Part shown: one piece after another, positions 159-53,227 of the stretch
Position numbering within the stretch: position 1 is the stretch's first letter
How the letters are laid out: each line of letters opens with the position of its first letter
From: Chitinophagales bacterium
GTDB lineage: Bacteria > Bacteroidota > Bacteroidia > Chitinophagales > S012-47
Direction of reading: 5' to 3'
NCBI GenBank assembly: GCA_015487695.1
Contig: WFPF01000021.1
Coordinates: 2,658-66,657, forward strand
Length of the DNA stretch: 64,000 bases
Notes under the pieces: model-generated
The model's database searches: none
What the model was told of the DNA's origin: nothing
What the model saw: the letters and a program-made list of their open reading frames with translations, nothing else
Program-made: the position numbers and the translations under genes

Positions 159-1169
159 ATGAACAAGGACGAGATCTCGCAAATTCTTTTGAATCAGGCT
201 TTCCCGGATACGGGAAAACACCTCGAAATGATCGAAACCCACATCTCATGGGTCATCCTCAGCGATCACTTTGCCTTTAAAATAAAAAAGCCGGTCAAAT
301 ATTCATTTTTGGACTTCTCTACGCAGGAACTTCGCAGGAAGTACTGCTACAATGAAGTCGCACTCAACAGACGTCTTTCGCCCGATATCTATCTCGGGGT
401 CATTGAAATCCGGTCGGACGGGGAATCTGCCACAATAGGAGACGGCCCGGGAGAAGTCATTGACTATGCGGTTCAGATGAAACGTGTACGCACCAATGCC
501 CGCATGGACCTCATGTTGATTCGAAAAAAAGTGAAGCGCGATCATGTAGATCGCATCGCCCGCACCCTCGTAGATTTTCATCAAACGACCGAGGTCATTC
601 ACAAGAAAATCGAGAAGGAAAAAATTATAGGGGACTTTAATGATCTTCAAAGTGTAAAACCCTTCCTCCGCGAAAAACTGGGCAATGTGGCTGTCAACCT
701 CATCGACCGCTCACTGGAATGTGCCGGCAAGTTTGTTCACCGCTTCGGAGACTTGATGCAGCTTCGCTCGGACCAGGGCTTTGTGCGCGATGGCCATGGC
801 GACCTGCACACAGGAAATATTTTCCTTCTCTCGAGGCCGGTCATCTTTGACTGCATTGAGTTCAACGATGATTTCCGTCAGATTGACGTGCTCGATGAGG
901 TCGCCTTTCTATGTATGGACCTTGAGCGTTTCGGCAGGAGGGATCTGAGCCATGCTTTTCTTGAAAAATACCTTGCCGAAACCCACGTGCTCCGCAATGA
1001 GGCCGAAGGGCGCCTTTTCCTTTTCTTTAAACTCTACCGGGCCAACGTAAAGGCCAAGATACAAGCTATCAAAGCTCAAAATGCTTCATCCGGGCGGGCC
1101 ATGAAAAAACACCTCGTCAGTGCCGACATTTACCTGCATCTGATGTCCGATTATCTGGCGGTGCTCTGA
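159..1169 (+). CDS. Aminoglycoside-phosphotransferase-like kinase (COG2187, Rv2004c N-terminal-like)
   Basis: Motifs IETHISWV, KIKKPV..FLDFST, E..LNRRLSP, DGHGDLH.GNI, FDCIEFN. Confidence 0.85.
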   Translation: MNKDEISQILLNQAFPDTGKHLEMIETHISWVILSDHFAFKIKKPVKYSFLDFSTQELRRKYCYNEVALNRRLSPDIYLGVIEIRSDGESATIGDGPGEVIDYAVQMKRVRTNARMDLMLIRKKVKRDHVDRIARTLVDFHQTTEVIHKKIEKEKIIGDFNDLQSVKPFLREKLGNVAVNLIDRSLECAGKFVHRFGDLMQLRSDQGFVRDGHGDLHTGNIFLLSRPVIFDCIEFNDDFRQIDVLDEVAFLCMDLERFGRRDLSHAFLEKYLAETHVLRNEAEGRLFLFFKLYRANVKAKIQAIKAQNASSGRAMKKHLVSADIYLHLMSDYLAVL

Positions 1170-1921
1170 ACACTTACCCTCCCGGCCAACTCTTCGGCAA
1201 TAAGCGGCAGGCTCTTTTCAAGTTCTTCGTAGCTATCTATGATAAAATACTCTTCCTGATACCTTTCCTTGATATAGGGGGTCTTCAGAATTTGTCTTAC
1301 ATCATAGCGATGCCTGGGCAAATCGGCCTGAAGGCAATAATCGCTCTCCCCGTTTGATGACAAAATGCCCGCTCCGTAGATCTTCAGCGCTCCTTTCTCT
1401 CTTATCAGGCCAAACTCCACGGTATACCAATAGATACGCGAAAGCAATTCCACGGCTTCCGGATTTTCAATCCAACGGAAGGCAATGTGGCTCAACCCCT
1501 CCAGGAAAGAAGAAAAATCCTGATTCGCCAGCAGGGGCACATGCGCAAATACATCGTGAAACATGTCCGGCTCTTCGAGATAATCGAGCTGGTCCATGCT
1601 GCGAAGCCAGGTGCTTGCCGGAAAGAAGCGTCCGCGAAGCATTTCGAAAAAAGTGCGGTTGTCGACAATTCCGGGCACTCCCCTCAGGCGCCAACCCGTA
1701 AGTTTTTCCAGCCGCTTGTTCACTTCATTGAAATCGGGGATACAGGTCTCCTGAAACCCCACAAGATCAAGGCCGTTTAAAAACGCGGCCGAAGCTTTGT
1801 TGGGCAGCTTTTTCATCTGCCGCCTGTACAATATCTGCCATACGCTGTGATCTGCGACACCGTATGCCGCATAGTCCTGCTTTAGCTCCCGGATGCCTTC
1901 AATGGTCTTCATTTCTTCCAT
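1151..1921 (-). CDS. phhA: Phenylalanine 4-monooxygenase
   Basis: YLEEPDMFHDVFAHVPLL (two Fe-binding His), YWYTVEFGL (Fe-binding Glu), YGAGILSS. Confidence 0.95.
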   Translation of the reverse strand: MEEMKTIEGIRELKQDYAAYGVADHSVWQILYRRQMKKLPNKASAAFLNGLDLVGFQETCIPDFNEVNKRLEKLTGWRLRGVPGIVDNRTFFEMLRGRFFPASTWLRSMDQLDYLEEPDMFHDVFAHVPLLANQDFSSFLEGLSHIAFRWIENPEAVELLSRIYWYTVEFGLIREKGALKIYGAGILSSNGESDYCLQADLPRHRYDVRQILKTPYIKERYQEEYFIIDSYEELEKSLPLIAEELAGRVSVQSTAR

Positions 1922-1943
1922 CTTTTTATTGGTTTTTATAAAT

Positions 1944-1976
1944 AAAAAAACCCGGCTTCGAATGCTCGAAGCCGGG
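1944..1976 (-). terminator. Attenuator terminator in the phhA leader
   Basis: mRNA CCCGGCUUCGA-GCAU-UCGAAGCCGGG-UUUUUUU: perfect 11-bp stem plus U7, ending 22 nt before the phhA ATG. Confidence 0.9.
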
Positions 1977-2001
1977 TGCTCATTTCTTTCAAAATATTAC
2001 A

Positions 2002-2067
2002 CTACGATCCTGCTCCGAGTCTGGCCGGGTTCAGATAATAGTAATAATAATTGCTGCAATTGATCAT
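2002..2067 (-). CDS. Tyr-rich leader peptide MINCSNYYYYYLNPARLGAGS (21 aa)
   Basis: ATG at 2067, five consecutive Tyr codons (TAT TAT TAC TAT TAT), TAG at 2002-2004, directly upstream of the terminator and phhA. Confidence 0.85.
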   Translation of the reverse strand: MINCSNYYYYYLNPARLGAGS

Positions 2068-2107
2068 TTCAGGGCTAAAACTATGCATTCCCTTTCAGTT
2101 TCGGAAA

Positions 2108-2869
2108 TCAAGTGTCTGTTTTTTTATCGACCAGGGTAGCACTTGCCTGATCCGCTGGCAAAATGAGCAGATCGGCTACATTCACATGCCCGGGGCGGGA
2201 GACAATGTACCAAATGCTGTCGGCCACATCCACGGCCTCCAGCGGCCGGTAGCCCTGATAAACAGCCTCTGCCTTTTCGTGATCACCTTTGAAACGCACT
2301 TCCGAAAATTCGGTATGGACCAGCCCCGGATGCACGGCCGAAACCCTGACCCCCGTACCCAGAAGATCCTGGCGCATGGCACGGGTAAGACCATCCACGG
2401 CAAACTTAGTGGCCACATAAACATTGCCCCTCGGATAAGCCTCCTTGCCGGCTATAGATCCGATATTCACTACCTGCCCGCGGCCCCGCTCCACCATGGC
2501 CGGAAGCAGCGCCCGGCTCAGATAAAGCAGTCCTTTGATGTTTATATCAATCATGGCTTCCCAGTCTTCGATCCGGCCTTCATGAATCAGGTCAAGTCCG
2601 TGGGCATTTCCTGCATTATTGATCAATATGTCAATCTCCTGAAATGCTGCCGGCCTGCTTTGCAAAGCTTCCGTCATGGCCTCGCGATCACGAATGTCAA
2701 AGTCCAGCGTACACACATCGGTCAGTTCCGAAAGTTCCTCCTGTAAGGCCTGAAGACGATCGGCCCTGCGAGCGCACAGAACCAAACGAATTCCGTTTCT
2801 TGCAAATATGCGGGCCGTTTCGCGGCCAATTCCCGAACTGGCCCCACTGATAAGTGCTGTTCTTTTCAT
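2108..2869 (-). CDS. SDR oxidoreductase (YdfG-like, NADP-dependent)
   Basis: ISGASSGIG, NNAG, YVATK (YxxxK), HPGLV.TEF; probable start at MKRTAL (2869). Confidence 0.9.
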   Translation of the reverse strand: MKRTALISGASSGIGRETARIFARNGIRLVLCARRADRLQALQEELSELTDVCTLDFDIRDREAMTEALQSRPAAFQEIDILINNAGNAHGLDLIHEGRIEDWEAMIDINIKGLLYLSRALLPAMVERGRGQVVNIGSIAGKEAYPRGNVYVATKFAVDGLTRAMRQDLLGTGVRVSAVHPGLVHTEFSEVRFKGDHEKAEAVYQGYRPLEAVDVADSIWYIVSRPGHVNVADLLILPADQASATLVDKKTDT

Positions 2870-52920: not shown

Positions 52921-53072
52921 ATCCTGATTTCTTTTCTCCTGCGAATTTACTTCTATTATTTCAATGCCTGTCATCACCTCCTGAGATTTTAACCCTGTCA
53001 CTTTCCTCTATGCAATTCATGCCTTTCTGCCTTATCTTTGTGTTGAAATTTGTTCTTTCAATTTTTGCCCAA

Positions 53073-53156
53073 ACACACCGGGGTGTCTGCCAATGGCAGG
53101 CTGAGATGATACCCGTAGAACCTGATGCAGTTCATACTGCCGTAGGAAAGTGTGAC
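53073..53156 (+). ncRNA. TPP riboswitch
   Basis: CACAC-CGGGGTG-(TCTGCC AAT GGCAGG)-CTGAGA..ATACCCGTAGAACCTGATGCAGTTCATACTGCCGTAGGAAA-GTGTG; upstream -7 box TATCTTTG at 53033-53040. Confidence 0.95.
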
Positions 53157-53227
53157 CCACACCCTTCTGCGCTTTATTCTCTCTCCGGAGTGTTTGCGGA
53201 TTTCGATCATCTGTAAAAACCGGAATT

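Follow-up and report, generated by a model that had tools for sequence, protein, structure and literature searches.

A putative tyrosine-sensing leader-peptide attenuator upstream of the phenylalanine hydroxylase gene phhA in Bacteroidota

Introduction

Why would a short open reading frame (ORF) with five consecutive tyrosine codons, followed by a hairpin and a run of thymines, stand immediately upstream of a gene for phenylalanine hydroxylase? This question is raised by the phhA locus in a stretch of 64,000 nucleotides (nt) from a Chitinophagales bacterium, which is referred to below as the window (contig WFPF01000021.1; the source assembly, GCA_015487695.1, comprises 2.77 Mb and is rated 98.7% complete). 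A first-pass annotation, made from the letters of the window alone, had proposed that the leader ORF and the hairpin form a ribosome-mediated transcription attenuator through which tyrosine controls phhA, and that PhhA is regulated here as a tyrosine biosynthetic enzyme.

PhhA turns phenylalanine into tyrosine, and bacterial phenylalanine hydroxylase is usually annotated as catabolic. The textbook attenuators read codons for Trp, His, Phe, Thr, Leu or Ile/Val, and Rfam holds the corresponding families Trp_leader, Phe_leader, His_leader, Thr_leader and Leu_leader. A 2004 paper by Vitreschak et al. in FEMS Microbiol Lett reportedly lists no Tyr attenuator. For control at the level of RNA, sections of Seliverstov et al. 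(2005, PMC1262725) name attenuators that respond to His, Thr and Phe, and assign Tyr to T-boxes. Passages of Song et al. (2005, PMC1173090) attribute the control of phhA to PhhR or to Lrp/AsnC-type proteins, and Table 7 of that paper gives a database-predicted putative attenuator for the Bacteroides thetaiotaomicron gene order pheA>hisHb>aroA-aroQ>tyrA. On the comparative evidence presented here, we consider it quite likely that phhA in the window is controlled by a Tyr-sensing ribosome-mediated transcription attenuator that reads charged tRNA-Tyr; its transcription start, the translation of its leader, the stalling of the ribosome and the operation of the switch in vivo are features that we infer from the sequence.

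Results

The leader lies on the minus strand, as do all parts of the proposed switch, and is an ORF of 21 codons plus TAG (MINCSNYYYYYLNPARLGAGS; 2002..2067, ATG at 2067, TAG at 2004..2002). It carries the regulatory codons TAT TAT TAC TAT TAT at 2035..2049, five consecutive Tyr codons that make up segment 1 of the predicted structure. When the whole genome was scanned in all frames on both strands, 8 runs of at least 4 Tyr codons were found; the only one of at least 5 is the leader run, and the other 7 sit inside long ORFs. Between the leader ORF and the downstream gene is an intrinsic terminator (segments 3 and 4, 1944..1977, -22.5 kcal/mol), in which CCCGGCTTCGA (1976..1966) pairs with TCGAAGCCGGG (1961..1951) over 11 base pairs (bp) around the loop GCAT. 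The hairpin had first been described with these 11 bp and U7; an additional pair, A1977-T1950, extends the stem to 12 bp, and the T7 tract occupies 1950..1944. The hairpin ends 28 nt, and the U7 tract 22 nt, before the ATG of the regulated gene (1151..1921, minus strand, ATG at 1921, 256 amino acids (aa)), which is identified as phhA, encoding phenylalanine 4-hydroxylase, by its match to Pfam Biopterin_H at 3.3e-46. The leader of 166 nt folds with z = -3.68, and none of 200 shuffled sequences folds equally well.

The strand assigned to the antiterminator (segment 2, 2008..2021) has the core CUCGGAGC at 2019..2012, which begins 15 nt past the last Tyr codon and can pair with GCUUCGAG (1972..1965) in the 5' arm of the terminator over 8 bp with one G-U, exactly as first described. 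Counted from the leader ATG, a numbering used throughout for leader positions, this duplex joins nt 49-56 (2019..2012) to nt 96-103. A complementarity between the sequence just after the Tyr run and the 3' arm of the terminator had also been pointed out, and this too is present: as a direct repeat, the heptamer ACCCGGC is found directly downstream of the Tyr run, at 2030..2024, and a second time where the terminator 5' arm begins, at 1977..1971, which makes the first copy a complement of the 3' arm. From its sequence, the first copy could act as a second antiterminating contact by pairing with the 3' arm. The repeat is shared by one relative (L001), and a similar motif is seen in another (L025).

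Relatives of phhA were collected as the best 80 of 563, one genome per species, mostly from Cytophagales and Chitinophagales; one locus (L011) was left out because its upstream sequence was too short, which leaves 79 phhA loci in all leader counts. These loci were scanned strictly for short ORFs in which 4 or more of 6 codons are Tyr, no more than 500 nt upstream of phhA, with the reverse complement as a control. Such an ORF is present in 22/79 loci on the sense strand and in 0/79 on the reverse complement. Six further leaders with fewer Tyr codons were recognized by inspection, among them RRYYCYCTY in Hymenobacter, YHHHYYH in Cesiribacter, YHRYYH in a metagenome-assembled genome (MAG) of Cyclobacteriaceae and YVHHSYH in Algoriphagus. 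Three more Algoriphagus leaders were found at 50-59 bits with R1, a covariance model built on an alignment of 29 leaders (A1). Scan, inspection and R1 together place a Tyr-rich leader before phhA in 31/79 loci, which bears out the conservation of the Tyr run expected of an attenuator. The genes upstream of these 31 leader-bearing loci differ, with DAHP synthase in 7 and another gene or none in 23. R1 has a single full-length match in the window's own genome, and this is the phhA leader.

A less biased sample of 150 other genomes, drawn evenly over the phylum, contained full-length PhhA in 24, and a Tyr leader preceded phhA in 4 of these. Seven of the 24 carriers share the window's order or class, and all 4 leaders fall among these; the 17 carriers of other classes in this sample have none (0/17).

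A terminator consisting of a GC-rich hairpin and a U tract is present in 32/32 leaders, with energies between -9.7 and -28.4 kcal/mol. From the leader ATG to the start of the terminator there are 88-116 nt in the 23 leaders for which this distance was taken, and from the end of the terminator to the start of phhA 4 to 159 nt across the leaders measured. Covariation of the helices was tested against 500 alignment shuffles, with sliding of the partner strand as a further control. In the 29 leaders of A1, 92.8% of the cells of the terminator helix are paired compared to 77.0 +/- 1.5 in the shuffles, and 65 cells have changed on both sides; neither value was reached by any shuffle (0/500), and sliding the partner cut pairing to 22-55%. 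The Tyr leader and its terminator before phhA are real and conserved, and they are not a product of chance.

The antiterminator duplex of the window has an energy of -16.5 kcal/mol (p = 0.03 against 200 dinucleotide shuffles). The same test on 22 leaders, with the segment after the Tyr run set against the terminator 5' arm plus loop, gave p <= 0.05 in 18 of them at a mean z of -2.3. In 21/22 the antiterminator segment starts 9-17 nt past the last Tyr codon, whereas across the 22 the position of the stop codon varies from nt 61 to 90. The pairing sequences themselves vary by locus, being GGATTAGG with CCTAATCC in Echinicola, GCGATTTAGGC with GCCTGGATCGC in Imperialibacter and CUCGGAGC with GCUUCGAG in the window, and each leader is fitted to its own terminator: pairing with the own arm averages -14.81 kcal/mol in 32 leaders, compared to -11.35 +/- 0.44 with swapped arms, a difference that 0/5000 permutations reach. 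On a MAFFT alignment in which several rows are misaligned, 74.1% of the antiterminator cells are paired and 23 are double-change cells (0/500 shuffles reach either value), and the covariation score beats all 500 shuffles. The terminator and the antiterminator therefore both covary, as the attenuator proposal had predicted.

Folding of the window leader is consistent with a switch between the two helices. The antiterminator is the minimum-energy fold (-19.7 kcal/mol) until the terminator 3' arm has been made, after which the completed terminator fold wins at -28.1 kcal/mol. The terminator forms alone if the stretch that a ribosome at the stop codon would cover (nt 49-79) is masked. The segment that follows the antiterminator strand, at 1989..2011, is able to pair back on the Tyr run, and this 1:2 pairing is present when the free window leader is folded to minimum energy; the 1:2 protector is likely but not established as a component of the modelled switch. 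The features by which leader-peptide attenuators are recognized are found together at this locus: a short ORF with clustered Tyr codons, an intrinsic terminator between that ORF and the gene, an antiterminator that overlaps the terminator 5' arm and would be left free by a stalled ribosome, and a controlled gene whose product is the regulating amino acid, since PhhA makes Tyr. The attenuator layout recognized in the first-pass annotation is supported in each of its structural predictions, namely ORF, terminator, antiterminator, conservation and covariation.

We then asked which amino acid the leaders read. In the 8-codon regulatory windows of 32 leaders (256 codons), Tyr accounts for 135/256 codons, His for 32/256 and Phe for 3/256. 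Judged by these codons, and by the near absence of Phe, the phhA leaders are a distinct Tyr class. His is interleaved with Tyr in many relatives, as in YYYHYYH of Roseivirga and in the Cesiribacter and Algoriphagus motifs given above (His-containing leaders: L034, L041, L057, L062, L064, L072, L078, L005, L037, L051, L070, L079). The same layout might accordingly read more than Tyr, either Tyr together with His or the queuosine-dependent NAY codons (Tyr, His and Asn), in which case phhA would respond to the state of the tRNA and not to tyrosine alone. The tRNAs for Tyr, His, Asn and Asp share the Q34 modification, His is the second commonest regulatory residue and recurs in several lineages, and Asn is common just before the Tyr run. 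However, Tyr dominates every leader, no metabolic reason ties His to PhhA, and the Asn-rich starts may simply reflect A-rich initiation regions. The window leader has no His codon, and tRNA-guanine transglycosylase (Pfam TGT) gave no match in the window's genome, whereas 14/14 genomes of the control set used for gene-absence searches have it. Because the window leader lacks His and no TGT was found, queuosine sensing cannot apply at the window locus, though it may in relatives. Overall we give such a multivalent sensor only a small chance, and Tyr sensing is taken as the preferred reading below.

Another explanation arises from the neighbouring gene. A short-chain dehydrogenase gene lies upstream on the same strand as phhA (2108..2869, minus strand; Pfam adh_short 1.2e-55), its stop codon is 130 nt ahead of the hairpin, and no other terminator stands before the hairpin. 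With the dehydrogenase stop only 130 nt upstream on the same strand, the hairpin may also terminate dehydrogenase transcripts. It would be a different matter if the hairpin and U7 served the dehydrogenase alone, the Tyr ORF being an untranslated chance occurrence and phhA being transcribed independently. We regard this as very improbable: the Tyr ORF, the terminator and the antiterminator recur together in 31/79 phhA loci despite their differing upstream genes, the strict scan found nothing on the opposite strand (0/79), the antiterminator covaries with its own terminator, and the leader has the single run of at least 5 Tyr codons in the whole genome. Nor was a separate phhA promoter, which the first-pass annotation had named as a possible refutation, seen between hairpin and ATG; the 28-nt gap contains no -7 box scoring above 4/6. 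Hardly more credible is a functional Tyr-rich micropeptide or translational control through hairpin masking or reinitiation, since, although some relatives have as few as 4-30 nt between the terminator and the phhA start, so that the hairpin could also affect initiation there, the peptides are not conserved as proteins past the Tyr run, their 3' halves track complementarity to the local terminator, the U tract in every leader is typical of intrinsic terminators, and a terminator-phhA distance that varies so widely does not fit fixed translational coupling.

How the attenuator leader would be transcribed and translated was addressed from its promoter-like box. The -7-like box that had been noted just upstream of the leader ATG is present as TAGTTTTA (2076..2083, minus strand), matches 5/6 fixed positions of TAnnTTTG and is separated from the ATG by 8 nt; an in-frame ATG at 2088 lies upstream of the box, ahead of the inferred transcription start. 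A -7 box scoring at least 5/6 ends 3-10 nt before the leader ATG in 28/32 leaders, and in 18 of those 28 the gap from box to ATG is 4-5 nt. To our knowledge, Bacteroidota are a phylum that does not use Shine-Dalgarno pairing. According to Guerin et al. (2021, PMC9723704), the Bacteroidota -7 box spans -12 to -5 relative to the transcription start, and with a gap of 4-5 nt the AUG would therefore fall at +1 or +2 in most loci. The same paper counts leaderless mRNAs at 5.5%, and 5' untranslated regions shorter than 10 nt were counted at about 3.7% by Ryan et al. (2020, PMC7366714). Judging from the position of the -7 box, the leader mRNA is probably leaderless.

In the window's genome, within its 98.7% completeness, searches for PDH_N (prephenate dehydrogenase), PDT (prephenate dehydratase), chorismate synthase and DHQ synthase gave no match, whereas in the control set of 14 genomes these four families are detected in 11-14 genomes apiece. 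The check for prephenate dehydrogenase (tyrA) suggested in the first-pass annotation thus had a negative result, as did those for three other aromatic-pathway enzymes. PhhB (pterin-4a-carbinolamine dehydratase) is present. Because the four aromatic-pathway enzymes were not found, PhhA looks like the sole route to Tyr, starting from imported Phe. Together with the missing TGT match, this makes the source organism a probable auxotroph for aromatic amino acids whose tRNA probably contains no queuosine. A biosynthetic PhhA agrees with published genetics, as parts of Price et al. (2020, PMC7311316) propose phenylalanine hydroxylase from fitness data as the Tyr route in Echinicola vietnamensis, Dyella japonica and Legionella; Echinicola arenosa (L045) bears the leader.

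The company that phhA keeps was surveyed in the relatives. It stands behind DAHP synthase on the same strand in 21/79 loci, 7 with and 14 without the leader. At one locus (L024, positions 2-2214) trpA, the DAHP synthase gene and phhA follow one another in this order and overlap or nearly touch, and by its gene order this is an aromatic-biosynthesis operon ending in phhA. In a seventh locus with a catabolic neighbour, beside the six leaderless ones weighed in the Discussion, the leader is present and HPPD is 1265 nt away. Upstream of DAHP synthase itself, an aromatic-rich leader was sought in the available sequence of 19 DAHP synthase-phhA loci and dismissed, with 1/19 on the sense strand and 4/19 on the reverse strand; at L024 that space is occupied by trpA. 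Within the spacer of 130-300 nt between DAHP synthase and phhA, no leader or terminator was found in 8 Cyclobacteriaceae loci. Genes of the HgmA_N-like kind described in the Discussion also occur directly ahead of phhA in three relatives (L004, L007, L067). In many Bacteroidota of the phylum sample we also observed an ORF of ~590 aa that matches Biopterin_H weakly and in two separate parts (E ~1e-14; for example G198:C1:696747-697553 and G105:C1:444433-445257). Judging from these matches, it appears to be related to the aromatic amino acid hydroxylases but longer.

Other leader peptides came to light when R1 was run on the phylum sample. It returned 30 loci, of which 21 were inspected and 19 gave a peptide; Pfam was run on 8 downstream ORFs. 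Leaders mixed in Phe and Tyr, some with Trp, and followed by terminators stand directly before prephenate dehydratase in 4 genomes, and a Phe/Tyr-mixed leader stands directly before a DAHP synthase-chorismate mutase fusion in 1 genome (examples are MTLTITYFNFYFFYFFSKSRLGM and MKRFNTYFWFYYYFFK; loci L097, L098, L099, L102, L116). One Roseivirga genome (G185) has both kinds, with the Phe/Tyr-mixed MKRLFAAYFYFFYFIERVR before DAHP synthase-chorismate mutase and the Tyr/His leader MLHSNAYYYHYYHATQARNGSRMF before phhA. The sample also yielded a further pure-Tyr leader, VINTNIYYYYYPLLNFRIG, with a GTG start ahead of phhA. Since several kinds of leader were found in the phylum sample, leader-peptide attenuation is common in Bacteroidota. 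A Met-rich leader, MKTLENGHIMMMHMMPSTGVG, lies ahead of an aspartokinase with ACT domains (L096, the one locus of this group whose downstream gene was identified), and Ile-rich (L094, L095, L117) and Thr/Ile/Val-rich (L101, L107, L118) leaders were also seen. A search for other leader-like ORFs in the window's genome, with 4/6 identical residues and a terminator, gave 43 candidates, nearly all of them coding-region noise; a Phe-rich one (C35) was rejected, as it is without a -7 box and precedes a membrane protein.

The leader was finally compared with catalogued RNA elements. Within window positions 1500..2600, Rfam returned no leader or T-box family at E <= 10 and only 5 chance-level matches. 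Over the whole 64-kb window the only match reaching the gathering score is elsewhere, a TPP riboswitch (RF00059, 68.9 bits) at 53069..53166 on the plus strand. No published Tyr leader peptide or phhA attenuator was found in the full-text literature, in which few subscription journals are covered and supplements are excluded.

Discussion

How would the attenuator work? Transcription would start a few nt before the leader ATG, and in most relatives exactly at it, so that the leader mRNA would be leaderless there; a ribosome would translate the 21-codon leader. When Tyr-tRNA is plentiful, the ribosome would pass the five Tyr codons and cover the antiterminator strand; behind it, or in a transcript without a ribosome, the segment with the Tyr codons may pair with the downstream segment and enclose the antiterminator strand. 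The 12-bp terminator would then form and halt RNA polymerase at the U7 tract, 22 nt short of phhA. If Tyr-tRNA is in short supply, the ribosome would instead stall on the Tyr run and leave CUCGGAGC free about 13-16 nt downstream, where it could pair with the emerging terminator 5' arm, so that no terminator forms and phhA is transcribed. PhhA together with PhhB would be the only source of Tyr from imported Phe, and it would be regulated by its product like a biosynthetic enzyme.

Several observations weigh against this account and are gathered here. Most phhA loci (48/79) are without such a leader. For the antiterminator, neither the number of covarying pairs nor that of pair types is significant (79/500 shuffles reach each), and sliding its partner by -1 still leaves 66.8% of cells paired, both on the MAFFT alignment. 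The terminator is the more stable of the two competing structures, so that the switch can only be kinetic, as it is in the known attenuators. The 1:2 pairing has p = 0.115 in the window and p <= 0.05 in only 11/22 leaders. The window -7 box is imperfect (5/6) and lies 8 nt from the ATG, and no clear -33 TTG element was found at the expected spacing from it. None of the 13 public sequencing runs listed is an RNA run containing DNA of the locus; the 11 that contain part of the stretch are all DNA, mostly hydrothermal-vent metagenomes. The His codons (32/256) are unexplained by a pure Tyr sensor, and the hairpin could double as the terminator of the upstream dehydrogenase gene.

Other points of this kind concern the biosynthetic role of PhhA. 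At 6 loci, all leaderless, phhA lies directly behind HPPD or HgmA-like catabolic genes. The window's genome itself has an HgmA_N-like gene (385 aa, with the N-terminal Pfam domain only, 2e-12) directly before HPPD (contig C63:1285-3615; L082, L121), so that Tyr made by PhhA could also be degraded; HgmA_C was not found in this genome. A link between the leader and the loss of tyrA, looked for in 50 of the 80 genomes, was not upheld, for a strong PDH_N match was missing in 11/28 leader-bearing and 5/22 leaderless genomes, which is no clear association in a set with many MAGs of unknown completeness.

Several steps beyond the attenuator itself can be taken together: that the phhA leaders found an undescribed class of Tyr-specific attenuators in Cytophagales-/Chitinophagales-type Bacteroidota, that they are leaderless, that PhhA is truly biosynthetic for Tyr, and that some lineages have turned to dual Tyr/His sensing. 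As a package this is a tentative proposal, somewhat short of probable.

The proposed regulatory logic would be independent evidence for a role of PhhA in tyrosine biosynthesis in many Bacteroidota, at which the Echinicola fitness data had hinted, and the leader would offer a cheap sequence marker of that role. It points to a free-living bacterium, known from vent metagenomes, that imports Phe and makes Tyr from it on demand. If PhhA is indeed the sole route, this nutrition would be animal-like, with Phe essential and Tyr derived from Phe. The regular placement of the -7 box suggests that translation of leader peptides is possible on leaderless mRNAs, and if the leaders are leaderless, the ribosome would load on the 5'-terminal AUG and coupling would begin at the first nucleotide. 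What appears new is the Tyr specificity, the target PhhA and the probably leaderless start; the principle, leader-peptide attenuation of the trp/phe/his type, is known.

The closest known systems are the enterobacterial leaders trpL, pheL (of pheA), hisL, thrL and leuL. They share with the phhA leader an ORF rich in codons for the product, alternative antiterminator and terminator, a possible 1:2 protector and the proposed rise of expression when the cognate charged tRNA is scarce. The phhA leader differs in reading Tyr, in targeting one hydroxylase, an enzyme of amino acid interconversion, instead of a de novo operon, in its probably leaderless start without a Shine-Dalgarno sequence and in having no sequence match in Rfam. 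The Phe/Tyr(/Trp)-mixed leaders of Bacteroidota are alike in phylum, layout and GC-rich terminators, and R1 detects them at 39-45 bits; they are mainly Phe with Tyr (e.g. YFNFYFFYFF) and precede de novo aromatic genes, whereas the phhA leaders are Tyr or Tyr/His. The control of phhABC by PhhR/TyrR in Pseudomonas and other Proteobacteria concerns the same enzyme and also responds to aromatic amino acids. PhhR is described in passages of PMC1173090 as a sigma-54 protein activator that induces a catabolic operon; the logic proposed here is opposite, with phhA on when Tyr is scarce, and the sensor would be the translating ribosome. The Tyr T-boxes of Firmicutes (tyrS and related genes) likewise sense the charging of tRNA-Tyr and choose between terminator and antiterminator, but they bind the tRNA directly without translation, and no T-box match is found at the phhA leader (E <= 10), where the charging of tRNA-Tyr would be read through a translated run of Tyr codons.

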